The notes: generated from the sequence alone by a model not told the origin. DNA of 64,000 nt from a bacterium (GCA_030647555.1 JAUSJG010000027.1:15532-79531), one strand, 5' to 3'; counted from the first letter of the stretch, positions 5,462 to 28,601 are shown. Program-made: numbers and translations.

Positions 5462-6013
5462 TTAAAATTTAACTTGTGGTACCTCTTTTTCCGCCACGTC
5501 GTCTAATTCAAAGAAAGCACGCTGTTTGAAATTGAAAGTGGAGGCGATAAAATTGCCTGGAAATACTTGCATTGCGGAGTTCATATCGCGTACATTGCCA
5601 TTGTAGAAACGACGGGAGGCTTGGATTTTGTTTTCCGTGTCGGAAAGTTCGCGCTGTAGCTCAAGAAAATTCGTATTGGCTTTCAGGTCCGGGTAGTTTT
5701 CCGCAACGGCAAAAAGCGATTTTAGGGTACCGGTTAGGGCGTTTTCCGCTTTTGCTTGGTCTTCCTGGCTTCCACTTTGCATAGCCTTTGTTCTGGCTTC
5801 AGTAACGGCCGTGAGAACACCGCTTTCGTGCGCCACGTAGCCCTTGACGGTTTCAATCAGATTGGGAATAAGATCGTGGCGACGTTTCAGTTGAACGTCA
5901 ATATCCGACCAGGCTTCGTCGGTGTTGTTTTTAAGACGGATAAAACCGTTATAGGTTATTACAACCCAAAGAACGATAGCGACGACGATTACCAGGAGGA
6001 TTAGCAACAACAT
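5462..6013 (-). CDS. lemA: LemA-family membrane protein
   Basis: 183 aa. N-terminal TM helix, then IRLKNNTDEAWSDIDVQLKRRHDLIPNLIETVKGYVAHE, typical of LemA. Confidence 0.8.
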   Translation of the reverse strand: MLLLILLVIVVAIVLWVVITYNGFIRLKNNTDEAWSDIDVQLKRRHDLIPNLIETVKGYVAHESGVLTAVTEARTKAMQSGSQEDQAKAENALTGTLKSLFAVAENYPDLKANTNFLELQRELSDTENKIQASRRFYNGNVRDMNSAMQVFPGNFIASTFNFKQRAFFELDDVAEKEVPQVKF

Positions 6014-6228
6014 ATGTTTGTATAAGGATAATGTCTATAATGTATACCGTTTTTGCAAAGGAGCAAGGAGTTGCTAATTTCTAATTTGCAATTTCTAATT
6101 TTTTCGGCATTGGGGACTGACGTAAATAACCTGTTCATATTTTGTTTAAGTACGCTTAAGAATAAGATTACTATGATTGAACAACGTAAAGTTGCGTGAC
6201 CACGTGGTTTTACGCGATGGTCGTCTAA

Positions 6229-6273
6229 AGGTATCAGGTACTTTTTTACCGGATAAAAAAGTACCTGATACCT
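6229..6273. promoter_or_regulatory. Perfect 19-bp-stem inverted repeat in the leader of the giant-protein gene
   Basis: aggtatcaggtactttttt-accggat-aaaaaagtacctgatacct, 40 bp upstream of the ATG at 6312. Also the palindrome gtgaccacgtggt at 6196-6208. Confidence 0.4.
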
Positions 6274-6311
6274 TTCGTTCTGTGCTACAATAATCCAGAA
6301 TACAAATACGT

Positions 6312-9300
6312 ATGTTAAGAACTTTTAAATCGGTCTTCCCTGGTATCCTGACTGTTGTTTTATTTATGGGTTGGTTTAGTCTTGCCACGCCGAAGCTTTT
6401 TGCGGAGGAGGGGGTTGCTTCATCACAAGAGACCAGTACCACTCCCGAAGTGGACCCGTTGGCCACTTCGGGAGTGGTACTGGGTGAAGCAACTCCCGCT
6501 TCAACACCGACACCCACTTCTGATCCAACACCAACACCAAATTCAACACCGCTACCCACTCCCGATCCCACGCCCGCTGTCACTCCCCCAATTACCCCTG
6601 TTCCTAATCCCAGTCCCACGGCTACACCGGAGGGAACTGATCCCGAGAACGAAAAACCAAATATCACCAAGACGGAAGAAGATACGGATACGGGGAAACT
6701 AGTCACTCTTTCCGCGCCGGACGAGACGGTAAATAATCAAAACGTCGTCACCGGCACCGAGATCCCCGAGATCTACAAAGTCGGTCAAGAAGGAAGAATC
6801 CAAATCAAGTGGAAAAACAACAACGATCAGGCAATGCAATTCAAGGCCGAAGATAAAAACAACAACGGCAAGCTTGATTACGTCGAGTGGACCGTTCCTC
6901 ATCTCTCCACCCAAGTCTTTGAAATCATCTACATCAGCAAAGCCTTCCAATTAGACGAGAACAAAGAAATAATCAGTGACATCTACGATAAGGTAAAGAC
7001 CCAAGATAACAACTGGGCAACAGTAAAAGATGGCCAATCTGTCCGTGTAACCTTCCAACAAGTATTGGATAATACGAAAGATATCACGATTCACGCCAGA
7101 CCAAAACAGAATCCTTTACTTTCTCTTTTTCAAGCCAAACCAAAAATCGAAGTTTATCCTGTTTATTCCACCACCCCTGAGACATCGGGGGTCCAAGCGT
7201 CCGAACCAATCGCCACGTTTCAAAGTATCGACAAAGAAAACACTTATCAAATCCTTCTCAAAGACTTAAAGACCCCTACCGATCAGTTTGATCTAAGAGT
7301 TATCAATGGCGACATTGATTTTGATTACATCGTAGATCCAGTAGGCTGGCTGACAAACTGGACTCACAGAAAGAAGATCACCATTGCCAACACCAATGTG
7401 GATGCGGATTTAACGGATTTTCCGGCACTGGTGAGCATTACTGCTGATGCGGATTTGGCAACCGCACTGGCAACTGGCTACGACATCAGGTTCACGGATT
7501 CCGGCGGAAGCACTTTGCTTTCCTACGAACGAGAATCTTGGTCAGGAGGCGCAGGCGCCAGCGCCACAGGAATCTTCTGGGTCAAAGTGCCAACCATCGA
7601 CGACACCGTGGACACCGACATTTATGTGTACTACGGCAAAAGTGACGCCGTCGACGGCCAATCGGCCGTCAATGTGTGGGATAGCAATTACAAAGGCGTG
7701 TGGCACATGGACGACGGGGCAGACACAAGCCACATTAACGATTCGACTTCCAATGGAAAAACCGGAACAAAGGAGGGGGCAGCAACACCTTCGCAAACAA
7801 CAGGATTGATCGGAAAGGCACAAAGCTTTGCCGCGCAACAAATCTCCACATCGAATATCGGGGTTTCTACGGTCGCTGGCGATAAAACAACGGTAGATTT
7901 TTGGATGAAGTGGGACGGAACGGACGAAGTGATGCCGTTCGGATTCGCGGCCTACGACCTGTATATGCATTTATCCGGCATAGGATTCAATTCCGCGCAA
8001 GGCGATGTATATGGCATCCCGACGACCGGATTCTCCGGGAACTGGAAGCACATAACGGCTGTGTTTTTTAACGGAGCATACACGGGGAATACGAAGATCT
8101 ATGTCAACGGAGTCTCCCAAACACTGACGCAGCTGTTTGGAGGCGCAGGAAGCGCGACCGTCAGCGTCAATCCTATGATCAGTGGCTGGGGATATAATTC
8201 GGGGTATAAATTTTCCGGATTATTGGATGACGTGAGAATATCGAATCTTGAGCGCTCTGCGGAGTGGATTAAGTTTGAATATTATAATCAAAGCTCGGCA
8301 AATGCAGAACTTACTTTTGCAAGCCAAGAAAACAATGTAAGCTGGTTGGCTGGCTGGAGCAATAGAAAGAAAATCACTATTGATCATACTAAAGTTGGTG
8401 GAGGCACTGAAACCCAAACCAACTTCCCGGTTCTTATTTCCCTCACAGGCTTATCCGGCATCAATGCCAATGGCACCGACATCAGATTCACTGCTGATGA
8501 TGGTGGAACATATCTTGCCCGCGAAATTGAAAGTTATTCCGCCGGCGCCCTTACCGCCTGGGTGAAAATTCCAACATTATCCCACACCGCAGACACCGTG
8601 ATTTATATGTACTATGGCAATAGTAGCGCTACCGAGCCCGCCGCCAATTCCACGTATGGAAGCCAAAATGTGTGGGACAGCAGTTTTAAAGGCGTGTGGC
8701 ATTTGAAGGAAGCAACAGGAGTAAACAATGCCGACTCAACCAGCAACGCCAACACAGGAACGCCAACGAATGGTCCAGTGCAAGCCACAGGGAAAGTTGA
8801 TGGCTCATTGAGCTTTGATGGGGGGGATGATTATGTAAATGTAGGAACTATTATTAATGTCGGCAACACGTTTAGCGTCGATGCTTGGTTCAACGCCAAT
8901 GAAGTAAAGACAGCCGGTTTAGTTTCAGTAATTGATTCAGGTGGGGACGGTCACTATGGCATTTGGACGAGAAACGACGGCACTGTTGAACTAATACTAG
9001 ACTGGTCGACTGGATGGACAAGTGTATCAACCACATATAGCACAAACAATTGGATACATATTATTGGCACATTTGATGGTACAACACTTCGTCTTTACAA
9101 AAATGGAATACTAGCGATTTCAAATACACCATCTGGTACTCCGATAAATGCTTCCAACAACTTAGTAATTGGAGCGATAACGGCAGCGAGCTTTCCATTC
9201 AACGGTCTCCTCGATGACACTCGCGTTTCCTCCACCGCTCGCTCCGCAGGTTGGATTGCTACCGAGTATGCCAACCAAAACTCTCCGGGGACTTTTTATG

Positions 9301-12300
9301 CAACCGATGATACCGGCGGAACCAGCAACAACATTGTTTGGACAGATGGTTCGGGAGACAACTTGTGGAGCACCGCCGGCAACTGGCAAGGCGGAGTAGT
9401 CCCAACCGCCAGTGACACCGCGGTGTTTAATTCCTCTGCCACCGGAAACGTCACCATAGACACAAATGCCAGCGTCAAAGGCATCAACATTGCCAGCGGT
9501 TACACCGGAACTATCACGCAATCTGCAAGTTACACCGTCACTATAGGAACCAGCGGTTTTACCCAAGCCGACGGCGTGTTTTCCGCCGGAGCCGGAGCCT
9601 TCACCGTGTCCGGCAATTGGGCGCACTCCGCAGGAACATTTACCGCCAACTCCGGCACGGTCACGCTCAATGGCACCGCTCAAACCATCTCCGGCAGCAC
9701 CACTTTCTACAACCTCACCAAGTCCGTAGCCTCTGCCGACACCCTCACATTTACCGCAGGAACAACACAGACAATTACCAACACCCTCACTCTCAACGGC
9801 GCCAGCGGACAACTGCTCTCGCTTCGTTCTTCCTCAACGCCAACGCAATGGAGCATCGATCCCCAAGGCACGAAATCATTCTCCTACCTGGATATCCAAG
9901 ACTCCAATAATATTAACGCCGTCAAAGCCAACGCTGGTTCCACCTCCATCTCTTCCGGTAACAATACCAACTGGTTCTTTGATGACACACTTCCGACAAT
10001 CCAATCCGTCTCTTCCGATAAAGCCAATAACACATACACGACCGGTACCGTCATCGATATCGACCTCACGTTCTCCGAACCCGTTACCTTAACCGGTACC
10101 GGCACGATCACCCTCGAAACAGGGACAACAGATCAAACCTGCGATTTTCAAGTTACCGACTCCGCTACAACAACCTGCAACTATACCGTGCAAACAGGAG
10201 ACACCAGCAGTGATCTCACTGTTAAAACAGTGGAAGGAACAATCAAAGATTCAGCAGAGAATCAAATGACCAATTTTGTGCCCGCCTCCAACCTCGCCGT
10301 AAACAAACAAATTGTAATCGATACTTTCCCCACCGCACCCTCTAATCTAACCGCCACCGTTCTTTCTTCTTCTTCCATTAAGTGGGACTGGACGGATAAC
10401 AGCAGTAACGAAGCCGGTTTTAAGTTGTACTCCTCCACAGGGACGCTTCTTGCGACCGTTTCTACAGGGGTAACCACATATACCGAGACAACGCTCACGG
10501 AAAACACCACATACAATCGCAAAGTCGTTTCATACAACAACGCCGGCAATTCTGCTTATTCTTCCACCGTTTCCGCGCTCACCAAACTAAACGCGCCATC
10601 GCTACTTTCCGGTCTCGCCATCTCTTCTACCAGTATTACCTGGAGCTGGACAGACAACAGTGGTGATGAAACAGGGTTCAAATTGTATGATGAAAATAAT
10701 GATTTGGTTGCTACGATTTCGACAGTCAATCGAACATACTACACCGAAACAAGTCTCACCAAAGGAACCAGTTACACCCGCAAGGTTGCTTCCTATAACG
10801 ATGATGGCACGTCAAGTTATTCCAACACCGTCACCGTCCAAACCCTCGCCCTCGCTCCCGCTTCACCAAAGCTTTTCACACCTGTTCCCGGCGCAGAGTT
10901 GGACACGCTCACGCCGACCTTCTCCTTTGGCCGTGTCTCCACCCTAGACGGCATCAAGTCGTACACCCTGCTAATCTACACAGAAGGAAGCACAACTAAG
11001 TCATACACGATTACTGATCTCCCTGATGGTTCCGTCGTCAACAACTCCGACTACACCGCCGAAGGTAATCAAGATTCCATAACCATCACCCTGAAAACAG
11101 AAGCCGGTCTTGTCAAAGGTCCCCACACATGGAAGGTGCGGGCCACGGACAACAACAACGCAACGGGAGACTCCGACTTCGCTTCCTTCACCATTGTCCT
11201 TACCGAAACCACCGCCGTCATCTCTCAACCCACTCCCACCGCGACCAGCAGTCCCGCTCCGTTGGAAGAACTGGCCGTTAAACCTCTTACTCCCGCCGAA
11301 GTAACCAAGCAGTACCAAGCAGGGAAGACTCCCTCCCGTACCAGTCCCTCACTCTGGCTTGATAACCTGGAGAAACAAGCGCAGATCAGAGCGGATAAGC
11401 AAACGGAGAATATGGATCAGCTGTTAAGCAAGTTTATTCCATTTGAGAAGATCCAAGCTTTTAATAACCGCCTGCAAGCCTTTATGCAAAGTCTCCAACA
11501 AAAATTAGCCAGTTTCTTTAATACAATGAAGAATCAAATAATCGCCTTCTTCACTAACACAACGCCTTCCAGTGTTCAACGTTTCTTCGCTTTCCTTTCT
11601 TCCTTCTTCCAAAACACAAGCAATTGGTGGGCGGAGCTGATGCAACAGGGCCGAGCGAACAGACTGGCGCTCGCGGAACAGGGAACAAACATCTTTGTCG
11701 TTTCGTTTAATCCCGTGAACAAAGTGGTGTCAAGTATGCAAGCGGGTGTGTTTAACATTATTGAGAAGTTCCAAGGCATCAACACGCCCAAAGATGCCAT
11801 CCTTGCCGATATCACGGCCAACCAGACCGCGCTTAAGCAATCTACCAATCGTCTGGTCGAAGGTACCGTCGATTTCTTCGGCCGACAGTTTAACGCGACG
11901 AAGAAAATCGCCATCTCCCTCTTCGCGGGGGCGCACACCACGTTCCGTTATAAGGTTTTGGCGGGAACGGGCGTAATTATAAGGAATACCGGTACTTGGC
12001 TTCACAATCTAATGAGTCAAGGCCGAGAGAACCGATTGGCGCTGGCGGGGAGTGGAACGAAGGTAGTAAACACCATCATTGATCCTGTACAGAGAGTGAG
12101 AAAAGCCGCCTGGCTTGGTTCCATTCAAGCATTGGAAGTTCTGGAAGGCAAAGACCAACTGAAACTCGCCATCGCCGACGTCCATCTTTCTGAGATACTA
12201 AACAACGAAGCCACGCTTAATTGGTCCACCAATCGTGTGACTTACGCCAAAGTCAACTACGGCGAATCCCTGATGTATGGCGAAGAAGTATTTATCAACG

Positions 12301-12434
12301 ACTATCAAAATAAACAAACAATAAAGTTGCCAAACCTAAAACCCAACACGAAGTATTATTTCGAGATTATTGTTACCGATCTGCAAAAAGAACAAGCGTA
12401 CGACGCGTATTATAGTTTTGTGACGAAAGAGTAG
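6312..12434 (+). CDS. Giant (2040-aa) secreted/anchored surface protein: signal anchor, Pro/Thr linker, two tandem DUF2341-like + LamG/ConA-like modules, beta-helix-like Thr/Gly-rich region, Ig-like and two FN3-like domains, duplicated C-terminal helical region, terminal FN3-like domain
   Basis: N-terminal hydrophobic segment, then TPTPTSDPTPTP linker. Two copies of W..RKKITI...FP.L....G..DIRFT module. Each copy followed by LLDDVRISN..RSAEWI / LLDDTRVSSTARSAGWI (LamG signature). Two FN3-like repeats (W.WTDNS..E.GFKLY...Y.R.V.SYN..G.S.YS). Internal duplicate QGRxNRLALAxxGT. Domain names assigned by motif recognition only. Confidence 0.75.
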   Translation: MLRTFKSVFPGILTVVLFMGWFSLATPKLFAEEGVASSQETSTTPEVDPLATSGVVLGEATPASTPTPTSDPTPTPNSTPLPTPDPTPAVTPPITPVPNPSPTATPEGTDPENEKPNITKTEEDTDTGKLVTLSAPDETVNNQNVVTGTEIPEIYKVGQEGRIQIKWKNNNDQAMQFKAEDKNNNGKLDYVEWTVPHLSTQVFEIIYISKAFQLDENKEIISDIYDKVKTQDNNWATVKDGQSVRVTFQQVLDNTKDITIHARPKQNPLLSLFQAKPKIEVYPVYSTTPETSGVQASEPIATFQSIDKENTYQILLKDLKTPTDQFDLRVINGDIDFDYIVDPVGWLTNWTHRKKITIANTNVDADLTDFPALVSITADADLATALATGYDIRFTDSGGSTLLSYERESWSGGAGASATGIFWVKVPTIDDTVDTDIYVYYGKSDAVDGQSAVNVWDSNYKGVWHMDDGADTSHINDSTSNGKTGTKEGAATPSQTTGLIGKAQSFAAQQISTSNIGVSTVAGDKTTVDFWMKWDGTDEVMPFGFAAYDLYMHLSGIGFNSAQGDVYGIPTTGFSGNWKHITAVFFNGAYTGNTKIYVNGVSQTLTQLFGGAGSATVSVNPMISGWGYNSGYKFSGLLDDVRISNLERSAEWIKFEYYNQSSANAELTFASQENNVSWLAGWSNRKKITIDHTKVGGGTETQTNFPVLISLTGLSGINANGTDIRFTADDGGTYLAREIESYSAGALTAWVKIPTLSHTADTVIYMYYGNSSATEPAANSTYGSQNVWDSSFKGVWHLKEATGVNNADSTSNANTGTPTNGPVQATGKVDGSLSFDGGDDYVNVGTIINVGNTFSVDAWFNANEVKTAGLVSVIDSGGDGHYGIWTRNDGTVELILDWSTGWTSVSTTYSTNNWIHIIGTFDGTTLRLYKNGILAISNTPSGTPINASNNLVIGAITAASFPFNGLLDDTRVSSTARSAGWIATEYANQNSPGTFYATDDTGGTSNNIVWTDGSGDNLWSTAGNWQGGVVPTASDTAVFNSSATGNVTIDTNASVKGINIASGYTGTITQSASYTVTIGTSGFTQADGVFSAGAGAFTVSGNWAHSAGTFTANSGTVTLNGTAQTISGSTTFYNLTKSVASADTLTFTAGTTQTITNTLTLNGASGQLLSLRSSSTPTQWSIDPQGTKSFSYLDIQDSNNINAVKANAGSTSISSGNNTNWFFDDTLPTIQSVSSDKANNTYTTGTVIDIDLTFSEPVTLTGTGTITLETGTTDQTCDFQVTDSATTTCNYTVQTGDTSSDLTVKTVEGTIKDSAENQMTNFVPASNLAVNKQIVIDTFPTAPSNLTATVLSSSSIKWDWTDNSSNEAGFKLYSSTGTLLATVSTGVTTYTETTLTENTTYNRKVVSYNNAGNSAYSSTVSALTKLNAPSLLSGLAISSTSITWSWTDNSGDETGFKLYDENNDLVATISTVNRTYYTETSLTKGTSYTRKVASYNDDGTSSYSNTVTVQTLALAPASPKLFTPVPGAELDTLTPTFSFGRVSTLDGIKSYTLLIYTEGSTTKSYTITDLPDGSVVNNSDYTAEGNQDSITITLKTEAGLVKGPHTWKVRATDNNNATGDSDFASFTIVLTETTAVISQPTPTATSSPAPLEELAVKPLTPAEVTKQYQAGKTPSRTSPSLWLDNLEKQAQIRADKQTENMDQLLSKFIPFEKIQAFNNRLQAFMQSLQQKLASFFNTMKNQIIAFFTNTTPSSVQRFFAFLSSFFQNTSNWWAELMQQGRANRLALAEQGTNIFVVSFNPVNKVVSSMQAGVFNIIEKFQGINTPKDAILADITANQTALKQSTNRLVEGTVDFFGRQFNATKKIAISLFAGAHTTFRYKVLAGTGVIIRNTGTWLHNLMSQGRENRLALAGSGTKVVNTIIDPVQRVRKAAWLGSIQALEVLEGKDQLKLAIADVHLSEILNNEATLNWSTNRVTYAKVNYGESLMYGEEVFINDYQNKQTIKLPNLKPNTKYYFEIIVTDLQKEQAYDAYYSFVTKE

Positions 12435-12436
12435 AC

Positions 12437-12610
12437 GGACTGCCAGGGTCGGATATCGGGTCGGACTGCTGTAGCGGTCCGACCCGCATTGGTCGGCGAC
12501 ACGTTGCCGCCAATCAAGGTCGGACCGCTCGGCAGTCCGACCTTACGCAGACGGGTCCGACCCTGAACCCAACGTGGTTCAGGGGTCCGACCTTAATGCG
12601 TCGTCTAATT
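12437..12610. repeat. REP-like cluster of at least four hairpins with GGTCGGAC/GTCCGACC arms
   Basis: ggtcggac-tgctgtagcg-gtccgacc; ggtcggac-cgctcggca-gtccgacc; gggtccgaccctgaacc-caacg-tggttcaggggtccgacc. Same family at 1-73 and 55076-55178. Confidence 0.6.
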
Positions 12611-12742
12611 CAGTCCCCTAAATGACGATTTTAGAAATTAGATATTAGTAATTGGAAATTTTTAAAACGATATGATTTTGTCATATCTGCTATTTAGCGT
12701 TATACTATCTTTATCAAAAAACAAACTAACATTTCGTAACAC

Positions 12743-13960
12743 ATGTCCCTATTTTCCAGAAAAGAATCTTATATCGGTTTAGATATTGGTACGTCTTCAA
12801 TAAAGATTGTTGAATTGAAGCGAGAGGGGAAGGATCAAATAAGATTAGTTACCTATGCGTCCGCGAAGAGCGCGGAGTCTTTGGCGAGTGATCAAAACAA
12901 TTCAGCCGTCGCGCATGTTGCGACAATCGCGCACGAGATATTACGGCGCGCGGGGGTGACTTCTTCGGAAGTGGTAGCCGCGCTTCCCAGTTTGTCTGTT
13001 TTTTCTGCTGTACTTTCTCTCCCTGATATGAGTGAACGTGATTTGGAAAAGGCGGTTGTTTTGGCGGCCAAAAATTATGTACCATCGCCATTAAAGGATG
13101 TTGTTTTGGGTTGGACGGTGATGAAGGAGGGTATTTCGTCAAAACCGGCATTGCCTGTGGATAAATCCAATAATCAGATGCAGTCGGTTGTAGGTGCCGT
13201 GGGAAAATTTGTTGATTTGAAAAAAAATGAAAATTCGGGCCAAGAGAAGCAAATTGTTCCGGTTGTTCCCGAAGATAGCGCCGAATTGAAAGTGCGTCGC
13301 CCTCTTGCGAAGAAAAACTCGGAAATATTTTTGACGGCTGCTCCCAAGGAATTGGTGCAACGCTATTCGGCGGTGATTGATCGATTGAATTTGAGCTTGG
13401 TTGCGTTGGAAGTCGAATCTTTTCCACTTTCACGTTCTCTTTTGGGGAACGCGAAGGAACCGGCGTTATTGGTGGATATTGGCGATTTGGCGACAAATTT
13501 TTCGATTGTGGATAACGGTTATTTGCGCATCAACCAGAGTGTCGATATTGGCGGAGCCGTATTAACCAAGGCTGTTGTCTCAAAATTTGGTGTTTCGTTG
13601 GAAGTGGCGGAAGCGCGCAAGTTTTCCTTTGGTTTAACTTCGGAAAAAGATAATGAAAGTACGGCAATGGCTTTAAAACCGGTAGTAAAAGATATTATTG
13701 ATCGAAGTATTAATCTAAAACGTATTTTTGAAAGAAAAAGCAATAAGGTTGTTGGTCGCGTGGTATTGATTGGCGGGGGGGCGAACCTAAAAGGTCTTGC
13801 GCAATTTTGGCAAGAAACATCGGGGATGTTTACCGAGGTGGGAAATCCATGGAAAGGCGTGCGGGTTCCGCTCACTTTAACTAATAAGTTAATTGCAAAC
13901 GGGCCTTCTTTCGCGGTGGCGGTTGGTTTGGCATTGCGCGAATTGGAACTTGGGGACTGA
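12743..13960 (+). CDS. pilM: Type IV pilus assembly protein PilM (actin-like ATPase fold)
   Basis: 405 aa. N-terminal YIGLDIGTSSIKIVEL actin-fold phosphate-1 motif. C-terminal VVLIGGGANLKGL. Sits at the head of the pilN/O/B cluster. Confidence 0.85.
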   Translation: MSLFSRKESYIGLDIGTSSIKIVELKREGKDQIRLVTYASAKSAESLASDQNNSAVAHVATIAHEILRRAGVTSSEVVAALPSLSVFSAVLSLPDMSERDLEKAVVLAAKNYVPSPLKDVVLGWTVMKEGISSKPALPVDKSNNQMQSVVGAVGKFVDLKKNENSGQEKQIVPVVPEDSAELKVRRPLAKKNSEIFLTAAPKELVQRYSAVIDRLNLSLVALEVESFPLSRSLLGNAKEPALLVDIGDLATNFSIVDNGYLRINQSVDIGGAVLTKAVVSKFGVSLEVAEARKFSFGLTSEKDNESTAMALKPVVKDIIDRSINLKRIFERKSNKVVGRVVLIGGGANLKGLAQFWQETSGMFTEVGNPWKGVRVPLTLTNKLIANGPSFAVAVGLALRELELGD

Positions 13961-14129
13961 CGTAAATAAACTATCCATCTTATGTCCACTACATCTCTGA
14001 CTACAATTACTACTCAATCACAAAATCTCTCACCGTACTTACAGTACGCCTCAAGATTTTGTTCAATCGTAGTAACCGTATTCAGAGCGTATTGAACAGA
14101 ATATGGACAGGTTATTTACGTCAGTCCCC
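13952..14129. repeat. 178-bp element bounded by 27-bp terminal inverted repeats (ggggactgacgtaaataaactatccat ... atggacaggttatttacgtcagtcccc); left TIR overlaps the pilM stop codon; a third TIR copy at 6102-6128
   Basis: Inverted repeats read directly. Reverse complement of the right arm is ggggactgacgtaaataacctgtccat. Near-identical 27-mer at 6102-6128. Confidence 0.55.
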
Positions 14130-14192
14130 AAAGCGAGTAAAATAGAATAAGTTATTCACAGGAGAGATATACACACTAAACAAAACACTACA

Positions 14193-14843
14193 ATGCCGAA
14201 AATAAATCTAGCTCAAGAAACAATGCGAAACCAAGCCATTGCGCGACGACGCAAGGTTGTGTATTTATTTTCGATTGTCGTCTTGGTGATTGTTGGTGCG
14301 TTTTATTTTGGCGTTTTGTTGCTAACAAAAAATTCTGAGGGAAAAGTGGCCGAAGTTGATAAACGTATCAAGGGTTTGGAACAACAAATTAAATCGCGCG
14401 AAGTCTCGGCAAAACAGATCAAGGCGTTTAGTATGCGTTTAGTTAATGTGGAGAGTCTTCTGAAAAACCATACGCGCTGGTCAACGACTTTGAGTGAGCT
14501 GGAGCGCCTAGTTTTGCCATCTGTTAGCATCCTTGGATTAAATGGCGGTGCGGATACCAAAGAGATCACGATGGATGTTTCGGCGCCAACAATCGAAACC
14601 GCGGCCGATCTTGTCGTGTCGCTAGAATCGGAGGCAAAAAATAATGAAACATTTTTCAGTAACGTTATTGCGTCATCATTGGGTTCGAGTAGTTCGAGCA
14701 GTTCAACGCCTAACGCAAGTACTGTTTTTGCTACAAAGCTTAAGTTTATAGTTAAACCGGAAGGGTTTCTTGATAAGAACATTTCCGTTTCTTCAGCCGA
14801 GTCTCCGGCTGTGGCGACGCCCGTTAATCCATTAATTCCCTAA
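14193..14843 (+). CDS. pilN: PilN-like type IV pilus inner-membrane assembly protein
   Basis: 216 aa. Single N-terminal TM helix then coiled-coil. Positioned after pilM. Confidence 0.55.
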   Translation: MPKINLAQETMRNQAIARRRKVVYLFSIVVLVIVGAFYFGVLLLTKNSEGKVAEVDKRIKGLEQQIKSREVSAKQIKAFSMRLVNVESLLKNHTRWSTTLSELERLVLPSVSILGLNGGADTKEITMDVSAPTIETAADLVVSLESEAKNNETFFSNVIASSLGSSSSSSSTPNASTVFATKLKFIVKPEGFLDKNISVSSAESPAVATPVNPLIP

Positions 14844-14847
14844 TCTT

Positions 14848-15495
14848 ATGGCACGCGCAACAACTGGTCTTTCTTACCTAACATTTGGTGTTGTAGTTTT
14901 GGGCTCATTAGTCTTTGGTGTTTTCGTCTTAATTCCGCAATTTGGACAATACAATTCGGCAAACGCGCAATTGGCACAGGCGTTAACGCAAGAACAAAAT
15001 AACCAAGCCTTCTTGGATAATTTGGATCTGCGAACTGAAGAGTTGAAAAAATATAGTGCTGATGCGAAAGCGCTTAGTGTGGTTTTGCCGGATAGATTTA
15101 TGCAGAGCAGTTTTTGGGTAAATATTAATGATTTGGCCATAAAGGCGGGAGTAGTGGTAAACACGATAAGTGATTCAAAAAAAGAAGCTGTTCCGCAAAG
15201 TAATACAAATCAACCAGTGGTGACCGCAAAATCCGTGTTGGCGAGTGACGGCACTCCGGTTGTTCAGGAAAATATTGTTTCGTCTCCAACCTCGAGATTG
15301 GAAAAATGGGTGACGTCTATTCAGGTTAAAGGTAACTATTCGCAGATTAGGGCGTTTATCAAGAATTTAGAGAGTTCTCTTATTCTTTCGGATTTGAAGG
15401 AGCTTAAGTTGTCTCCGGGAGCGTCTTCCGATAAAAGTACCGTAGTGGATATGCTTTCGGCCGACATGACGATTCGAACATATGTTCAACCTTAG
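14848..15495 (+). CDS. pilO: PilO-like type IV pilus assembly protein
   Basis: 215 aa. N-terminal TM then coiled-coil (AQLAQALTQEQNNQAFLDNLDLRTEELKK). Gene order pilMNO. Confidence 0.5.
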   Translation: MARATTGLSYLTFGVVVLGSLVFGVFVLIPQFGQYNSANAQLAQALTQEQNNQAFLDNLDLRTEELKKYSADAKALSVVLPDRFMQSSFWVNINDLAIKAGVVVNTISDSKKEAVPQSNTNQPVVTAKSVLASDGTPVVQENIVSSPTSRLEKWVTSIQVKGNYSQIRAFIKNLESSLILSDLKELKLSPGASSDKSTVVDMLSADMTIRTYVQP

Positions 15496-15512
15496 TTCAT
15501 AATACCGATACC

Positions 15513-15806
15513 ATGAATTCACAAAATATCAGAGTTGTCGCTTATAGTGCAGTGGGGGTATTAGTATTAGTGCTTGTTGGTATTGTTAGTTACATTTATT
15601 TATCCGGCCGACAGCCGGCGGGTTTACAGCAGGTTGCGCGTTTAAATGTGGGCGGTGTTTCGTCGAATGAGGCTAATAGTCCCTTTAATGTCGCGGTGTT
15701 AAACAGTGGTGCGTATAAAGCGCTGGATAAGTCCTTGCTTGATGCGGATAAGTTGCCCGTAAAAGTGCCGGAAAACAGAGGTAAAGCCAATCTTTTTGGA
15801 ATATAG
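15513..15806 (+). CDS. Small single-TM protein; possible PilP-like component
   Basis: 97 aa. One TM helix. Position between pilO and pilB only. Confidence 0.3.
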   Translation: MNSQNIRVVAYSAVGVLVLVLVGIVSYIYLSGRQPAGLQQVARLNVGGVSSNEANSPFNVAVLNSGAYKALDKSLLDADKLPVKVPENRGKANLFGI

Positions 15807-15853
15807 TTTTAATGAGAGGAGAATGAGTGAAGAAATATTCAGGGCGGTAACGC

Positions 15854-17626
15854 TTGAGTAATTTGCGATTTTTAAAAAATATGGCTCAATATAATCAAGG
15901 TTCAATCGAAGATGTCTTAGAAGAATGGGGTTTTCTTGCGACTGATCAAAAAGAAACACTTAGGGATACGGCGATTAAAAGTGGTCGCACGATCGATGAG
16001 ATTTTGTTGAGTGAAAGAGTTGTTCCCGAAGAGCAGTTTTATCGTGCCAAAGGAAAAGTACTTGGTATTCCATACATCAATTTGGCAGATTTAGAGATAC
16101 AACCGGACGCCGTTTCAGTTATTGCCGCGGATGTGGCAAAGAATTATAATTTTTTAGCTTTTGCTAAAGACGGGACGACATTGCATGTGGCAATGGCCCA
16201 ACCGGACGACTTTCAGGCGTTGGAAGCATTAAAATTTCTAACAAAAAATACGGGCTTAAAAACGGAAATTCATATCGCTTCGGCCACATCTGTTTTGGAC
16301 GCGCTTTCAAAGATTTCCGGTGGCTTGACCGGGGAAGTGCAGAGCGCGATCAGAGAGTTTAATGAGGAATTGGAAGATGTTCGAAAGGATGTAAGGGGCG
16401 GTGACAGAGATGTGGAAAAAATAGTCGGCGAAGCGCCCGTTACAAAAGCGGTGGCGGTTATTTTACGCCACGGCATTGAAGGAAAGGCGTCGGATGTACA
16501 CATTGAACCAAGCGCGGAAAATTTGCGCGTCAGATTTCGTGTTGATGGGTTGCTATATACGAGCCTTCTTTTGCCGTTAAAACTGCATAATCCGTTAACA
16601 TCGCGTATTAAAATTTTAAGTAATTTAAAAATAGACGAACAGAGATTGCCACAAGACGGTCGGTTTTCCACAAGCGCCGGTGGGCATGAATATGACATCC
16701 GTGTCTCTATTTTGCCAACGGTCTACGGTGAAAAAATTGTTTTACGTATTTTGGACAAATCGCAAGGGGCGGTACCGTTTGAAAAACTTGGTTATACCGG
16801 TGTGCGCTTGGAACACTTCAAAGCATCTTTAGCTAAGCCACACGGATTAATATTGATCACCGGCCCAACCGGTTCTGGAAAATCAACAACGTTATACACA
16901 GCTATTGATAGCATCTGTGATTCAACTCTTAATGTTGTTACTCTCGAAGATCCTGTTGAATATCGTATCGCGGGCACCAATCAGTCACAAATTAATTCGG
17001 ATATTAATTTTTCTTTTGCTAATGGTTTACGAAGTATTTTGCGTCAAGATCCCGATATAATTATGGTTGGAGAAATTCGTGACAAAGAAACGGCCGAATT
17101 GGCGGTACATGCCGCGTTAACCGGTCATTTGGTGTTGTCTACGTTGCATACCAATGACGCAATCGGCGCAATTCCGCGCTTGATCGACATGGGACTTGAA
17201 CCGTTTTTGTTGGCTGCCGTGTTTCGCGTGGTTGGCGCGCAACGTTTGGTTAGACGTCTTTGTGAAGCGTGTAAAAAAGAAGTTCCCATTCCAATGGAAT
17301 TTCGTGATATAATAACCAATGTAATCGCAACTGTTCCTGATTCAGAAAAAACGGAAGCAAATCAGAAAGATCCTAAGGTTCTTTATGAAGCCGAGGGATG
17401 TAAGGATTGTGGTGGCAAGGGCACGAGCGGGCGTATCGCTGTCGTGGAAGTTATCCCAATTACAGAGGATTTAAGGCAGGCGATGATGTTGCGTAAATCG
17501 CAAGCGGATATGTATAAGATTGTTGTAAAGGAAAGAATTCTTTCAATGCGTCAAGACGGTTTTCTTAAAGCGTTACTCGGAGTAGTATCATTAAGAGAGG
17601 TTCTCGAAGTTACGTCAGAGGATTAG
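15854..17626 (+). CDS. pilB: Type IV pilus assembly ATPase PilB (GspE family)
   Basis: 590 aa. N-terminal GSPII_E N-domain. Walker A GPTGSGKSTTLY. Asp box and His box. Tetracysteine CEACKK...CKDCGGKG zinc motif. Confidence 0.9.
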   Translation: MSNLRFLKNMAQYNQGSIEDVLEEWGFLATDQKETLRDTAIKSGRTIDEILLSERVVPEEQFYRAKGKVLGIPYINLADLEIQPDAVSVIAADVAKNYNFLAFAKDGTTLHVAMAQPDDFQALEALKFLTKNTGLKTEIHIASATSVLDALSKISGGLTGEVQSAIREFNEELEDVRKDVRGGDRDVEKIVGEAPVTKAVAVILRHGIEGKASDVHIEPSAENLRVRFRVDGLLYTSLLLPLKLHNPLTSRIKILSNLKIDEQRLPQDGRFSTSAGGHEYDIRVSILPTVYGEKIVLRILDKSQGAVPFEKLGYTGVRLEHFKASLAKPHGLILITGPTGSGKSTTLYTAIDSICDSTLNVVTLEDPVEYRIAGTNQSQINSDINFSFANGLRSILRQDPDIIMVGEIRDKETAELAVHAALTGHLVLSTLHTNDAIGAIPRLIDMGLEPFLLAAVFRVVGAQRLVRRLCEACKKEVPIPMEFRDIITNVIATVPDSEKTEANQKDPKVLYEAEGCKDCGGKGTSGRIAVVEVIPITEDLRQAMMLRKSQADMYKIVVKERILSMRQDGFLKALLGVVSLREVLEVTSED

Positions 17627-17665
17627 TAAGTGTAAAATTTTTTATCATTAGCAAACCATCTGATT

Positions 17666-18055
17666 ATGGATCCAGCCAAAGCAAAAATATTACTAGTTGA
17701 AGATGATACGTTCATTTCGGGCATGTACCAAACAAAACTTTCGATGCTTGGCTATTCAGTGCGGGTTGCTTCTGACGGTGAAGCAGGGTGGGCAGAGTTG
17801 CAAAAAGAGGCACCGAATATTGTTTTGCTGGATATTGTTCTTCCCAAAAAAGATGGCTTTGAGATTCTTAGTGAAATCAGAGCAAGCGCGACTTTAAAGA
17901 ATTTGCCGGTAATTTTATTAACAAACCTTGGTCAAAAACCGGACGTTCAGAAAGGTTTGGAATTAGGCGCCGATGACTATATTATTAAGGCGCATTTCAC
18001 GCCAACTGAAGTTGTGGAAAAGATTGAAAAAATGTTAGCCAAAAAAATAGCCTGA
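17666..18055 (+). CDS. Stand-alone CheY-like response-regulator receiver domain (PilH-like)
   Basis: 129 aa. ILLVEDD ... LLDIVLPKKDG ... K residues of the receiver fold. No output domain. Confidence 0.8.
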   Translation: MDPAKAKILLVEDDTFISGMYQTKLSMLGYSVRVASDGEAGWAELQKEAPNIVLLDIVLPKKDGFEILSEIRASATLKNLPVILLTNLGQKPDVQKGLELGADDYIIKAHFTPTEVVEKIEKMLAKKIA

Positions 18056-18084
18056 AGTAGTAGCAGATTTAATAACATAAAAAA

Positions 18085-19182
18085 ATGATCGGACGAACAC
18101 CGGAAAATCTTCTTAAAGACCTTTTCGAGCATGTAATTAGTCGTAATGCGTCTGATTTGCACTTGTCGGTGGGGAGACCGCCCGTAATTCGTATCGATGG
18201 GAAACTTTTTTCGGTTCCGGAGGTTGGTGTGTTAACAAAAATTGATTTAAATGAGGTGTTTAAGGCGATTGGTGGAGAAGAAAGGGCCAAGAAATTTGAT
18301 CAAGGTCAACAAGAGGTGGATTTTGCCTTTGCGCATGAAAGCGGTTTCCGCTTCCGTGTTAATGTCTATTTAACTTCTCAGGCGATAACAATCGCCATGC
18401 GGACAATTCCTCGCGACATTCGTACCTTGGATGAATTAAGTCTTCCGCACGAATTAGAGCAGTTTGCAAAACCGTCGCAAGGTTTTGTTTTAATTACCGG
18501 CCCAACTGGACACGGAAAAACAACTACCATGACGGCGATTGTGAATATAATTAATCGATCGAAAGTTGCTCATGTTATTACTATTGAAGATCCTGTGGAA
18601 TATGTTTACGTGGAAGATAAATGCCTGATTCATCAACGGGAAATTGGTCGTGATACCGAATCATTCTCGCAGGCGCTGAAAATGGCTTTTCGTGAAGACC
18701 CGAATGTCGTAGTGGTTGGTGAAATGCGTGATTTGGATAGCATTGCTACGGCTTTAACTATCGCGGAAACCGGTCACATGGTGTTTGCCACTTTGCACAC
18801 CAACAATTCCGCGCAAACCATCGACCGTATCGTTGATGTTTTTCCTGTCGGGCAACAGGCCCAAATTAGAACGCAGTTGGCGGGAACATTAACAGGGATT
18901 GTTTCACAGCGGTTAGTGCCGGCCAAGAACGGTGGTCGCTTACCGGCAGTTGAATTGCTTTTGGCCACACCAGCCGTTCGAAACTTAATTCGTGAGGGTG
19001 AAACGGCGCAAATTCCAGGGGTAATTCAAACTAGCGCCTCCCAAGGGATGATTCCTTTGGAAAGATCACTTAAATCGTTGGTTGATCAGAACCTTGTAAC
19101 AGTAGAGGAAGCAATGGTTTTTGCTTCCGACCCGTCGCTTCTTGGGTATAGCGATTTTGCGATGGGCAGTTCTATGGTATAA
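18085..19182 (+). CDS. pilT: Twitching-motility/retraction ATPase PilT
   Basis: 365 aa. Walker A GPTGHGKTTT. PilT-type His box. No N-terminal GSPII_E_N extension. Confidence 0.9.
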   Translation: MIGRTPENLLKDLFEHVISRNASDLHLSVGRPPVIRIDGKLFSVPEVGVLTKIDLNEVFKAIGGEERAKKFDQGQQEVDFAFAHESGFRFRVNVYLTSQAITIAMRTIPRDIRTLDELSLPHELEQFAKPSQGFVLITGPTGHGKTTTMTAIVNIINRSKVAHVITIEDPVEYVYVEDKCLIHQREIGRDTESFSQALKMAFREDPNVVVVGEMRDLDSIATALTIAETGHMVFATLHTNNSAQTIDRIVDVFPVGQQAQIRTQLAGTLTGIVSQRLVPAKNGGRLPAVELLLATPAVRNLIREGETAQIPGVIQTSASQGMIPLERSLKSLVDQNLVTVEEAMVFASDPSLLGYSDFAMGSSMV

Positions 19183-19205
19183 TTTAGTCACACAAATAAA
19201 CACAC

Positions 19206-20414
19206 ATGGCGGACTATCAATATCGCGTACGTAATCGGCAGGGAAACATTTCACGGGGTGTTATTAAAGCATCATCGGAAGAAGAGGCTGTTGAGATGTT
19301 GGGACAACACGGGCTCGTGCCGATTGAAATCCGTGATTCTAAAGATACATCTTTTTTCAGCAAAGAATTAACACTCAAAAACGTATCGGTGCGCGATCGC
19401 GCGATATTCTCGCGTCAATTGGCGACGATGATTTCTTCCGGTATTCCTATTTTACAGGCCCTGCGTATTCTGGTTTCTCAAACGGAAAATTCCAAGCTCG
19501 CCGATATTTTGAGAGAAGCTACATACGATATTGAAGGCGGGGAATCGTTGAGCAATGCGTTAGAAAAATATCCGCACCAATTTTCTGAATTCTTTATTAG
19601 TATGGTACGCAGTGGCGAGCAAAGTGGACGCGTGGCGGAGGCGTTGGAACGATTGGCAGACAACGAGGAAAGGAACTATTCCCTTATTAGCAAAGTGAGA
19701 GGCGCTCTGATTTATCCCGCCTTCGTTATTTCCGCCATGCTGGTAATGGGTCTATTGATGGTGGTGTTTGTTATTCCGCAATTAACGGGGCTGTTTGATC
19801 AGTCGGATGTTGAATTGCCGTTTATCACAAAAGTATTGATGGGAAGTTCCACGGTCATTGGGACTTATTGGTGGTTTATTCTGCTTTTTATAATCGTTGC
19901 AGGTGTTTTAATTTCGTTCTATGTGCGTACAACGGAGGGTAGGTATAATATGCACGCGATAATGTTGCGATTGCCAATTGCCGGTCGGTTACTTCAGAAA
20001 ATGTACCTCGCGCAGTTTACCGGAGCGATGGAAGTGCTGGTGAAAAGTGAAATTCCCGTGGTGCAGGCCTTGATGGTGGCGCGTGATATCATGGGTAATA
20101 AAATTTATCGTCAAATCATTGACGAAACGGCCGAAGAGGTTAAAAACGGTTCAACCATTTCTTCTGCTTTTGAAAAATATCCGGAAATTCCAATGATGGT
20201 TTCGCAGATGATCAGTGTTGGTGAGCGTAGCGGTGAATTGGGCAAGTCTTTAAGTTCCGTGAATCGTTTTTATCAAAGAGAAGTGAACGATGCTGTGCAA
20301 AACATAACGCAATTAATTGAACCGGTTGTTATCGTAGTTCTTGGTGTTGGTGTGGCCGTAATGATTATGGCGGTGTTGATGCCAATTTATCAGTTGGTAA
20401 ATGTGATACAATGA
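19206..20414 (+). CDS. pilC: Type IV pilus platform protein PilC (two T2SS-F domains)
   Basis: 402 aa. Duplicated T2SSF-type helical domains, three TM segments. Confidence 0.85.
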   Translation: MADYQYRVRNRQGNISRGVIKASSEEEAVEMLGQHGLVPIEIRDSKDTSFFSKELTLKNVSVRDRAIFSRQLATMISSGIPILQALRILVSQTENSKLADILREATYDIEGGESLSNALEKYPHQFSEFFISMVRSGEQSGRVAEALERLADNEERNYSLISKVRGALIYPAFVISAMLVMGLLMVVFVIPQLTGLFDQSDVELPFITKVLMGSSTVIGTYWWFILLFIIVAGVLISFYVRTTEGRYNMHAIMLRLPIAGRLLQKMYLAQFTGAMEVLVKSEIPVVQALMVARDIMGNKIYRQIIDETAEEVKNGSTISSAFEKYPEIPMMVSQMISVGERSGELGKSLSSVNRFYQREVNDAVQNITQLIEPVVIVVLGVGVAVMIMAVLMPIYQLVNVIQ

Positions 20415-20507
20415 GGGTAGCTTTTAGGTTAATTTTGAACTTAGAAGCAAGATGGGCCTTGAAGAATAACTGGTTTATTTACGCCCAAAATTACCAATGT
20501 CCAATTA

Positions 20508-20541
20508 CCAATTTCCAATGAAATTTCAAATTCCAAAAACG
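20508..20541. promoter_or_regulatory. CCAATTTCCAA...CCAATGAAAT motif upstream of the pilin gene (also at 48612-48637 and 59351-59394)
   Basis: Three copies, each in the 5' region of a plus-strand gene. Confidence 0.35.
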
Positions 20542-20645
20542 TCGTCTTTGCGCCTGCCGGCCGTAGCTTTAGCGAAGGCTGGAGCCAATCTCCTGAACTT
20601 TCGTATTGAAAACATTACTATTTTATCGAGAGGAGGTGATCGCGT

Positions 20646-21056
20646 GTGAAAAAGTTAAATAACAAAGGTTTTACCCTCATCGAATTGTTGGTTGTTATTG
20701 CGATCATCGGATTGCTAGCATCAATGGTTTTGGTGGCGGTATCAACAGCAAGAGCAAAGGCGAAGGATGCCCGCGTTAAAGCTGATGTTCAACAAATTAG
20801 GGTTCTTGCGGAAGCTTCGGCGAGTGATTCTGGTTCTTACTCAGACACGACTAGTTGGCCTACAGCAGCACAAACATCTTACGGAACACTTTCTGGTGAT
20901 ATTGGATCTCAAGGAGGTACGGTTACAAAAAATGTTAATGGAACAACCTCGTTCTGTATTAGTTCAACTTTGCCATCTGATAGTACTAAGAGTTTTTGTT
21001 TGGCGACTACAGGCAAAACTGGTACCGTTGCGTGTGGAACAGGAGATTGTCCGTAA
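20646..21056 (+). CDS. pilA: Type IV (major) pilin, class-III signal peptide (GTG start)
   Basis: 136 aa. KG|FTLIELLVVIAIIGLLA prepilin cleavage/N-methylation motif. AGGAGG Shine-Dalgarno 8 nt upstream. Confidence 0.85.
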   Translation: MKKLNNKGFTLIELLVVIAIIGLLASMVLVAVSTARAKAKDARVKADVQQIRVLAEASASDSGSYSDTTSWPTAAQTSYGTLSGDIGSQGGTVTKNVNGTTSFCISSTLPSDSTKSFCLATTGKTGTVACGTGDCP

Positions 21057-21060
21057 AGAT

Positions 21061-21145
21061 ACAAATGGAAAAAAACAACGCGGAAAATCCCGCGTTGTTT
21101 TGTATTGTAGTTTTCCCCGACTTCGTGCCTACTCTCTGTTTAGTT
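21061..21145. repeat. 85-bp module containing a bidirectional rho-independent terminator (copy 1, terminates pilin gene)
   Basis: aaaaaaacaacgcggaaaatcccgcgttgtttt hairpin with flanking A-run and T-run. Identical 85-mer at 21432-21516. Confidence 0.65.
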
Positions 21146-21431
21146 CCCGACTTCGGAGGTGTTTGACATAACAATAAAATATGATTTATTAATCAGCTTG
21201 CATTGGCCAATTATGTGATTTTCAACATATGAAAAAACGCACTAACGCGACGTTTTTTTCACTTTTTTGTCTTTGACAAATTCTAAAATATTTAACTTAA
21301 TAATTAGCTTATACTAGCTAATTATTTTTGATTTACACCAGTAAAAAACTTTTTTCAAAGGATTGCAAAAAATTGTTTTATTTTCGTACATGAGTGTTTA
21401 TAAAGAAACGCACTAAACCTCCGAACTCAGG

Positions 21432-21516
21432 ACAAATGGAAAAAAACAACGCGGAAAATCCCGCGTTGTTTTGTATTGTAGTTTTCCCCGACTTCGTGCC
21501 TACTCTCTGTTTAGTT
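21432..21516. repeat. Second identical copy of the 85-bp terminator module, abutting the stop codon of the minus-strand GT-C gene
   Basis: Exact 85/85 identity with 21061-21145. Confidence 0.65.
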
Positions 21517-22739: not shown

Positions 22740-22886
22740 TAGGGCTTATTTTGTGGATTTATTATTTTATTTAGCTAGTAAAGTGTAAGGTACAGATTTT
22801 GGTTATGAACCGCAACTATAGGTTGTATTGTGTGCTATAATTAAAAAAGTGATTAATGGGGGGATAATTCTTATTAGCGAATCTAA

Positions 22887-24079: not shown

Positions 24080-24094
24080 GATATAGACAGACAC

Positions 24095-24715: not shown

Positions 24716-24723
24716 AAAAATTT

Positions 24724-28541: not shown

Positions 28542-28547
28542 TTACCT

Positions 28548-28601
28548 GCACCACATTCCAAGTGGAGCAAGCTTGCTCCACTTGGAATGTGGTGCAGGCT
28601 T
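28548..28601. terminator. 54-bp perfect palindrome downstream of ligA (cctgcaccacattccaagtggagcaagc|gcttgctccacttggaatgtggtgcagg)
   Basis: Read directly. No T-run, so function as terminator is uncertain. Confidence 0.4.

Follow-up and report, generated by a model that had tools for sequence, protein, structure and literature searches.

This analysis concerns a stretch of 64,000 nucleotides of bacterial DNA (GCA_030647555.1 JAUSJG010000027.1:15532-79531), called here the window, and in particular its longest open reading frame (ORF). The ORF starts with ATG, occupies 6312..12434 on the plus strand, and encodes a giant protein of 2040 aa; the runner-up in length is DnaE (1204 aa). It lies head-to-tail with pilM (12743-13960) on the same strand. 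An earlier, sequence-only reading of this DNA had described it as the single largest gene of the window, set beside pilM, and the ORF, its size, and its position are all confirmed. The product is identical to GenBank record MDO8512701.1 ('MAG: DUF2341 domain-containing protein [bacterium]', where MAG stands for metagenome-assembled genome). The record belongs to a contig of 109,794 nt and is flanked there by LemA (MDO8512700.1) and PilM (MDO8512702.1). On the 5' side, the window has genes for ClpB (-), RecX (+), a Clp_N-only protein (+), an M48 peptidase (-), and LemA (-). On the 3' side, the pilus locus is followed by DNA ligase (ligA) and then by housekeeping genes. The features of the locus are listed below (REP, repetitive extragenic palindromic).

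5462..6013 (-): lemA, the left neighbour, which directly adjoins pilM in relatives
6071..6098 (no strand): left AT-rich repeat (TTGCTAATTTCTAATTTGCAATTTCTAA), at the left edge of the segment lacking in relatives
6227..6275 (no strand): perfect 22-bp hairpin with a 5-nt loop, 5' of the start codon, from fold computation
6312..12434 (+): coding sequence of the giant surface protein, GenBank MDO8512701.1
6405..6502 (no strand): in-frame palindrome in the Pro/Thr spacer, codons 32-64, with 21-bp perfect arms (6433-6453/6463-6483) and 18-bp outer arms (6405-6422/6485-6502)
12437..12615 (no strand): GC-rich REP-like hairpin cluster with four exact GGTCSGACC copies, lying between the giant gene's stop codon and the pilM promoter
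12631..12658 (no strand): right AT-rich repeat of 28 nt, inverted partner of 6071-6098 (79% complementary), at the right edge of the same segment
12678..12706 (+): pilM promoter-like site, TTGTCA-17-TATACT, its -10 kept in five relatives, both those that have the giant gene and those that lack it
12743..26045 (+): type IV pilus locus (pilM, pilN-like, pilO, a small ORF of 97 aa, pilB, response regulator, pilT, pilC, pilins), given as context and outside the giant gene's unit

The best named relatives of the GyrB of this organism are from the Parcubacteria group, Andersenbacteria, and the Patescibacteria group, with 62-69% identity. Judged from this protein, the source organism is a bacterium of the Patescibacteria or Candidate Phyla Radiation (CPR), Parcubacteria-like. 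The placement makes reasonable the earlier guess of a small-genome bacterium of episymbiotic type. GyrB of the window (42070-44202) has no intein, and its closest GyrB relative (P0122; 95% identical, 1187 aa) contains one (PF14890).

The giant protein can be divided into the following parts.

6312..6404 (+): residues 1-31, signal peptide or signal anchor (MLRTFK, a 19-aa hydrophobic stretch, and TPKLFA/EE), from hydropathy, motif search, and homologue N-termini
6405..6650 (+): residues 32-113, Pro/Thr-rich spacer (P 26%, T 22%), from composition
6651..7346 (+): residues 114-345, N-proximal all-beta domain outside any Pfam family, predicted as Ig-like plus a jelly roll like that of carbohydrate-binding modules (CBM) or galactose-binding domains, with a calcium-loop-like motif, DKNNNGKLD
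7347..8339 (+): residues 346-676, DUF2341 + Laminin_G_3 module 1, from Pfam and profile
8340..9311 (+): residues 677-1000, DUF2341 + Laminin_G_3 module 2, from Pfam and profile
9312..9983 (+): residues 1001-1224, Thr/Ser/Gly-rich with short GNW..GTFTA..GTVT-type units, from composition, putative fold unconfirmed; the equivalent in P0002 is ~420 aa longer
9984..10319 (+): residues 1225-1336, putative Ig-like domain, from sub-threshold Big_12 and CopC matches (E 0.02-0.04)
10320..10853 (+): residues 1337-1514, two FN3 domains, from Pfam and PDB FN3 matches
10854..11207 (+): residues 1515-1632, third FN3/Ig-like beta-sandwich, from the third fn3 stretch, weak when scanned alone
11208..11351 (+): residues 1633-1680, second Thr/Pro linker (T 19%, P 17%), from composition
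11352..12161 (+): residues 1681-1950, internal duplication (..WW.ELMQQGRANRLALAEQGT.. and ..WLHNLMSQGRENRLALAGSGT..), from self-comparison, with long helices predicted at low confidence
12162..12431 (+): residues 1951-2040, terminal FN3/PAP-N-like domain, from sub-threshold matches

By hydropathy, residues 8-26 are the sole strongly hydrophobic segment of the protein. The claim that the protein is signal-anchored holds in part: the single N-terminal segment is there, but it does not distinguish a cleaved signal from an anchor. The class III (pilin) motif G-F/M-T/S-L-x-E is not found within the first 60 residues, and Pfam N_methyl gives no match. For sortase anchoring, LPXTG-like strings are internal only and no C-terminal hydrophobic segment is found. 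A lipoprotein was considered and rejected, as there is no lipobox and no Cys near the N-terminus. The two Pro/Thr linkers described earlier are borne out by the composition of residues 32-113 and 1633-1680.

Laminin_G_3 (PF13385; 102 bits in two stretches, cut-off 27.6 bits), DUF2341 (PF10102; 70.9 bits in two stretches, cut-off 23.4 bits), and fn3 (PF00041; 59.6 bits in three stretches, cut-off 25 bits) are all over the curated (gathering) cut-offs of Pfam, and FN3 matches are also found in PDB. No NCBIfam model matches the protein. DUF2341 and Laminin_G_3 form two tandem modules, which are 34% identical to each other (tblastn E 2.7e-35). Each has both of the motifs by which the modules had first been recognised: WTHRKKITI at residue 350 and LLDDVRIS at 637 in module 1, WSNRKKITI at 682 and LLDDTRVS at 966 in module 2. 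A profile made of 11 DUF2341-LamG sequences (A3) was compared with solved structures. It matches an S-layer domain protein (4qvs, E 1.6e-13), the C-terminal module of an arabinanase (5hon, E 2.9e-10), neurexin LNS (~2e-9), and the Hc binding domain of the mosquitocidal clostridial toxin PMP1. These are LamG/ConA-type binding modules, as the proposal of a lectin/LamG-like fold would have it. No solved relative of the DUF2341 half of the module was found with the same profile. None of the Pfam families of the protein is enzymatic. The domains support an adhesin-like architecture, in which a mosaic surface protein rich in lectin modules is secreted or anchored, because the LamG profile matches lectin-type modules and no catalytic domain is found.

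LamG-like modules can also be read in another way. The protein may be an enzyme or a carrier of an effector, having a cryptic polysaccharide-degrading or toxin function in its Thr/Gly/Ser-rich or helical regions and lectin modules that target it to the walls of prey or host. Laminin_G_3 falls within the ConA-like lectin/glucanase superfamily, and LamG-like modules accompany glycoside hydrolases (e.g., the arabinanase 5hon/5ho0). DUF2341-LamG is fused with RHS/YD in relatives P0009, P0021, P0041, P0045, P0059, and P0077, and ~500 residues of the giant protein have no assignable fold. The protein itself, however, matches no family of catalytic, RHS, or toxin type, even when its segments are scanned one by one with E allowed up to 1. 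It has none of the RHS/YD features of polymorphic toxins, while other DUF2341-LamG proteins have RHS/YD repeats, and its unassigned regions are low-complexity or repeat-like, not enzyme-like. Such a function is highly improbable.

The sequence-only reading had left the choice between an adhesin and an S-layer-like protein. While the adhesin-like part of this claim is supported, the S-layer part is not. A structural protein of the S-layer or envelope, which forms or decorates an outer proteinaceous layer, would be large, secreted, and beta-rich, as this protein is. The best solved LamG relative, 4qvs, was deposited as 'S-layer domain-containing protein', and SLH (PF00395) is found in DUF2341-LamG relatives P0032, P0035, P0046, and P0089. 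Nevertheless, the giant protein has neither SLH nor any other known wall-binding domain. Its family is multi-copy per genome or contig (Ga0247841_10000065; P0075 and P0113) and highly mosaic, and close relatives do without the gene, which would not be expected of a core component of the envelope. A structural role of this kind is quite unlikely.

The remaining parts of the protein are assigned with less confidence. Residues 1001-1224 had been labelled beta-solenoid- or beta-helix-like, and this is unconfirmed: neither the single sequence nor a 9-sequence profile matches Pfam or PDB. An autotransporter/PATR (PF12951) reading gives no match either, in this region or in nine aligned homologous segments. 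In the case of the Ig/FN3 repeats, three fn3 stretches are over the Pfam cut-off, but the Ig-like matches stay sub-threshold. The C-terminal internal duplication is evident (32% identity over 87 aa, E 6e-15). The helical character ascribed to it comes from one model of the last 400 aa, which was made from a 3-sequence alignment and has a predicted local distance difference test score (pLDDT) of 44. The terminal 94 aa, when scanned alone, match Pur_ac_phosph_N and fn3 at E 4e-5 to 7e-5, both under the cut-offs. The last ~150 aa (final helix and FN3) constitute an end module, which recurs in at least 12 other clusters of large proteins, at their very C-terminal end. For the C-terminal 400 aa, close full-length relatives are only P0361, P0002, P0362 (an ORF of locus L001), and P0003. 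In L001 (6185-9425 of CAIZMI010000055.1), the 900-aa homologue of the C-terminal half comes right after a set resembling a diversity-generating retroelement: an FGE-sulfatase/C-type-lectin-fold protein, bAvd, and reverse transcriptase. Among the Pfam-scanned ORFs of the window there is no comparable set, about a dozen ORFs of at least 150 aa being outside that scan.

The relatives of the giant protein were surveyed in a BLAST map of its 120 best database matches and in metagenomes, where the N-proximal domain (N-domain) was confirmed in 151 stretches. There, 80 loci were fetched and their neighbours clustered, and 94 loci were fetched overall. In the BLAST map, the most widely shared part of the protein is not DUF2341/LamG but the N-domain (residues ~114-345). 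It is 45-58% identical in 63 of these 120 matches, in proteins of 1185-3465 aa. What comes downstream of the N-domain is very varied and includes BspA-like leucine-rich repeats, PKD, PATR, Big_2, RHS, or nothing recognisable. At their N-termini, the homologues have a K/R-rich tail, one transmembrane segment, a spacer of 116-673 aa, and then, always, the N-domain. Its invariant residues (I53, W57, D71, D79, E82, W83, P86, L88, S89, and Q91, in A1 numbering) are all present in the giant protein. A model of the N-domain from a 30-sequence alignment is all-beta (pLDDT 88; predicted template modelling score, pTM, 0.77). A Foldseek comparison of the whole model with PDB gives no match at E <= 0.001, and the invariant loop D..D.NGKLDYVEW has a sub-threshold EF-hand match. 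By these alignments, the giant protein is a member of a CPR family of giant surface proteins, which share the N-domain and differ in the distal cassette.

Another gene is often found directly 3' of the genes for N-domain giants. This gene, c0, encodes a conserved single-transmembrane protein of ~120 aa and is present in 16 of the 37 loci that show the 3' side (L006 19359-19718, L008 20689-21084, L014 16248-16616, L022 14827-15210, and 12 more). The gap between the two genes is mostly -3 to +30 nt. The c0 protein has the motif FVEKVL..EVSFEDRL.LENAVR.LND..IF.QWQKF and belongs to no Pfam family. It is absent from the window by tblastn and by hmmsearch --max (best E 0.67). The recurrent neighbourhood of the family is SBP ... 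UvrC / giant / c0 / UvrA / GroES-GroEL / Zn-ribbon / LemA-M48. A single-domain response-regulator gene, 31-39% identical to the one in the pilus operon, is found 0-5 kb from the family gene in five loci (L005 21152-21589, L050 3357-3716, L080 1209-1589, L061 7228-7596, and L001 4143-4493), and in L050 and L080 it abuts the family gene directly.

The closest relative of the giant protein is P0002 (MDO8512468.1), which is encoded on a contig of 40,998 nt. Within one GenBank batch, its accession precedes that of the giant protein by 233 and, judging from these numbers, P0002 is probably a paralogue in the same MAG. The two proteins share the first ~345 aa (signal, spacer including the palindrome-encoded peptide, and N-domain) and the C-terminal ~400 aa, with 67% identity in the latter. 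Between these ends P0002 has one DUF2341-LamG module against two, and a Thr/Gly/Ser-rich (beta-rich) region that is longer by the length listed above. Two family members on one contig are also found elsewhere (Ga0247841_10000065; P0075 with P0113). Within the giant gene, the GC content of third codon positions (GC3) ranges from 0.43 to 0.63 between modules.

The position of the gene can be judged from three relatives reached via PilM homologues (L089, L090, and L091). They are collinear with the window (ClpB-RecX-M48-LemA, then PilM-...-PilC) and have no giant gene. Their ClpB, M48, and LemA are 77-93% identical to those of the window and their PilM 64-79%; for L089 the values are ClpB 89%, M48 93%, LemA 91%, PilM 79%, PilB 85%, and PilT 89%. 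While the lemA-pilM spacer of the window is 6729 nt long, those of the three relatives are 147, 166, and 323 nt. The giant gene is taken as an indel at the lemA-pilM site because three collinear relatives have a short spacer and no giant gene there. As far as gene order can tell, the comparison shows that the adjacency to the pilus genes arose by a recent, lineage-specific insertion. Alignment places the two ends of the ancestral spacer at 6014-~6070 and ~12655-12742, leaving an extra segment of ~6071-12658.

Codon usage also sets the giant gene apart. Its relative synonymous codon usage correlates with the rest of the window at r = 0.23, against 0.63-0.81 for five housekeeping genes, and its GC3 is 0.53 where most other genes have 0.37-0.51. 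Inverted repeats stand at both edges of the extra segment. Their motif is part of a dispersed family of intergenic AT-rich repeats of the 'AATTTCNAATT' type (6071-6100, 12631-12660, 20490-20535, 33030-33056, and 49687-49820). Between 12631-12653 and 33034-33056, 23 bases are identical. As for a transposase or recombinase, the giant gene is the only ORF of the extra segment with a family or homologue match, overlapping ORFs in other frames (83-216 aa) not being scanned separately. No direct repeat flanks the inverted repeat at the segment edges as a target-site duplication would. A stand-alone Clp_N gene (3621-4292, between recX and the M48 peptidase gene) is likewise missing from L089-L091. 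It has the highest GC3 of the window (0.60), has hairpins on its 5' side (3290-3370 and 3455-3496), and looks like a second small insertion.

In the sequence-only reading, the giant gene and the pilus genes may form one cell-surface attachment module. Stated fully, the neighbouring type IV pilus would display or deliver the protein, which would act as a PilY1-like tip or accessory adhesin. The gene is directly 5' of pilM on the same strand, and pilus genes are present within 10 kb in L036 (PilC ~9 kb upstream) and L006 (pilin-like genes ~8 kb upstream), both of them related loci. In cultivated Saccharibacteria, host binding is reported to occur through type IV pili (PMC11623550). However, L036 and L006 are only 2 of the 46 related metagenome loci with at least 5 kb of upstream sequence, and pilM does not follow the giant gene in any of the 26 related loci showing its 3' side. 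The three collinear relatives have complete pilus loci and no giant gene. The usual neighbourhood of the family is the UvrC-to-LemA-M48 arrangement given above. Codon usage of the giant gene is unlike that of the pilus genes. The protein lacks a class III signal and N_methyl, and no Pfam family of a PilC/PilY1 beta-propeller or vWA domain matches it at E up to 0.1. The conserved promoter of pilM and the REP-like hairpin cluster between the two genes suggest that pilM is transcribed apart from the giant gene. On these comparisons, the giant gene is not an integral, conserved part of the type IV pilus operon; with lemA next to pilM in the three relatives, the proposed module is not supported, and synteny of the giant gene with pilM is not conserved, an outcome that the sequence-only reading had itself named as refuting. 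An adhesin of the pilus is unlikely. Some functional link to pili may nevertheless exist, because archaeal DUF2341 proteins sit in Epd pilus loci.

The best explanation is that the giant protein is a modular adhesin on the cell surface of a Patescibacteria (CPR) bacterium, its gene being located in an insertion that is not part of the pilus operon, with both topology and ligand predicted from sequence. We give this a probability of roughly 0.6. Several observations weigh against it. Residues 1001-1224 match nothing in Pfam or PDB, and the model of the helical region has the low pLDDT given above. A ligA gene is found 1.3-2.3 kb upstream of a family member in five or six metagenome loci (L006/L007, L023, L036, L048, and L051), and ligA follows the pilus locus both in the window and in L006/L036. 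In the archaeon Methanococcus, large DUF2341 proteins are encoded in the Epd type IV pilus loci and are proposed as tip adhesins (PMC4858521), and one DUF2341 gene of that locus was recovered repeatedly in a transformation screen (PMC10133366). Finally, in the closest relatives of pilM (81-85% identity) the contigs break 60-118 nt 5' of pilM, within AT-rich repeats. Such contig ends are seen in at least three assemblies (L092 1-118; L093 and L094 1-60). The breaks fit a repeat-rich or strain-variable region at this site. One relative's contig (102,848 nt) bears homologues of both LemA (P0518) and PilM (P0516). No contig of that length is on record for any of the 120 best matches of the giant protein, which is no more than suggestive.

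Hairpins are abundant around the gene. The stretch of 131 nt around the upstream hairpin (6200-6330) folds with z = -6.5 against shuffles. The sequence-only reading had placed this hairpin in the leader (6229-6273) and taken it as a sign of regulated expression. The hairpin is real, but the regulatory meaning is not supported, as such structures are common in the window: besides this one there are at least nine perfect hairpins, with arms of 16-27 bp, each with its own sequence and mostly in intergenic positions or at the 3' ends of genes or tRNAs. Those with arms of 19-27 bp and loops of 0-5 nt include 28545-28598, 55668-55722, 35235-35281, 3455-3496, and 34894-34934. L091 has a long hairpin of its own in the lemA-pilM spacer, where it has no giant gene. 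Long unique hairpins after genes and tRNAs appear to be a genome-wide intergenic style and are probably terminator structures. Rfam in gathering mode finds three tRNAs only, and in E-value mode (5950-6600) only sub-threshold models of miRNA precursors, which are generic hairpin matches. The upstream hairpin would lie outside the transcript, on its 5' side, if TACAAT at 6284-6289 is a -10 element.

The second palindrome is inside the gene. It is near-perfect over ~40 bp, and the 111-nt stretch of 6400-6510 folds at a free energy (dG) of -76 kcal/mol (z = -9.8). The peptide that it encodes is kept in P0002, and a search of the rest of the window and of the 94 fetched loci finds no other copy of its arm sequence. 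A phase-variation switch made of the two perfect hairpins was considered and rejected: their arms are 5 and 9 nt apart and enclose no invertible segment. Downstream of the gene, the 211-nt stretch of 12430-12640 folds at dG -116 kcal/mol (z = -10). GGTCSGACC has seven exact copies in the window, where 0.28 are expected, at 30-70, 12437-12615 (the largest site), and 55088-55170.

In the preferred reading, a modular adhesin encoded in a non-pilus insertion, the lone N-terminal hydrophobic segment would serve for export and may also hold the protein in the membrane. The Pro/Thr spacer would pass it through the wall, and the N-proximal beta-sandwich/CBM-like domain with its calcium-loop-like motif would serve as a family-wide base. 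The distal shuffled cassette, made of the two DUF2341 + LamG modules, the Thr/Gly/Ser-rich region, Ig/FN3 spacers, the putative helical region, and the terminal FN3, would point outward to bind glycans or proteins, whether these belong to a partner cell, a host cell, or some other surface. The gene is a member of a paralogue-rich family, lies within a lineage-specific insertion of ~6071-12658 between lemA and the pilM promoter, and would form a separate transcription unit.

A wider proposal is more tentative. The anchor, the variable spacer, and the N-domain may together be a new CPR-wide display base, which carries recombining adhesive cassettes and in many lineages has c0 as a membrane partner. 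Copies with conserved ends (MDO8512701.1 and MDO8512468.1) would then have been duplicated into new sites, for example the repeat-bounded lemA-pilM spacer. If this is true, the set of proteins with which these episymbionts bind their hosts would change quickly. Ultrasmall CPR bacteria are thought to be cell-attached, and the molecules by which they choose and hold their hosts are largely unknown outside Saccharibacteria. The giant gene is a concrete candidate for a host-binding protein. The N-domain is a simple handle for cataloguing such proteins across CPR genomes, as is c0 in other lineages. The locus also gives a caution: an adjacency suggestive of a pilus operon is explained by collinear relatives as an insertion.

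Several known systems can be compared with this protein. MSCRAMM-type adhesins of monoderms (e.g., SdrG) are anchored by a C-terminal LPXTG motif and sortase. The giant protein is like them in having a signal, a low-complexity spacer, tandem Ig/FN3-like beta-sandwiches, and a ligand-binding region predicted to project from the wall. It differs in having only an N-terminal hydrophobic segment and no C-terminal sorting signal. PilB and PilC of Streptococcus sanguinis are modular type IV pilins that have lectin modules and class III signal peptides. ConA/LamG-like lectin modules, a type IV pilus locus, and a monoderm-type cell are found in both cases, but the giant protein is ten times larger and has no class III signal. 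Rickettsia palindromic elements are inserted in frame within protein-coding genes. The palindrome of the Pro/Thr spacer is likewise long, in frame, and in a structurally tolerant coding region. Unlike the Rickettsia elements, it is single by the search described above, and insertion and origin in situ are both possible.

The Epd proteins of Methanococcus (arCOG03508; MMJJ_08210; PMC4858521, PMC10133366) also have DUF2341, are pilus-adjacent, and have a hypothesised adhesin role. In Methanococci, the genes form part of the pilus locus and keep that place throughout the group, while the nearest collinear relatives of the window lack the adjacency. What is common is the domain alone. The nearest parallel in kind is found in Patescibacteria. 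Giant DUF2341 proteins of this group are reported and proposed as adhesion or host-interaction factors, and the description of Patescibacterium danicum counted proteins of >4000 aa with DUF2341/FhaB domains (PMC11809585). Those proteins differ from the one described here in that it has 2040 aa and no FhaB-type domain, and its N-proximal domain, the c0 partner, and the genomic context are not defined in that paper. The two are alike in coming from the same phylum-level group, in being very large and secreted, in having DUF2341, and in their proposed role in adhesion or host interaction. While giant DUF2341 surface proteins of CPR bacteria are already noticed as a class, the N-domain family, its c0 partner, and the repeat-bounded insertion are side observations that may be worth study.

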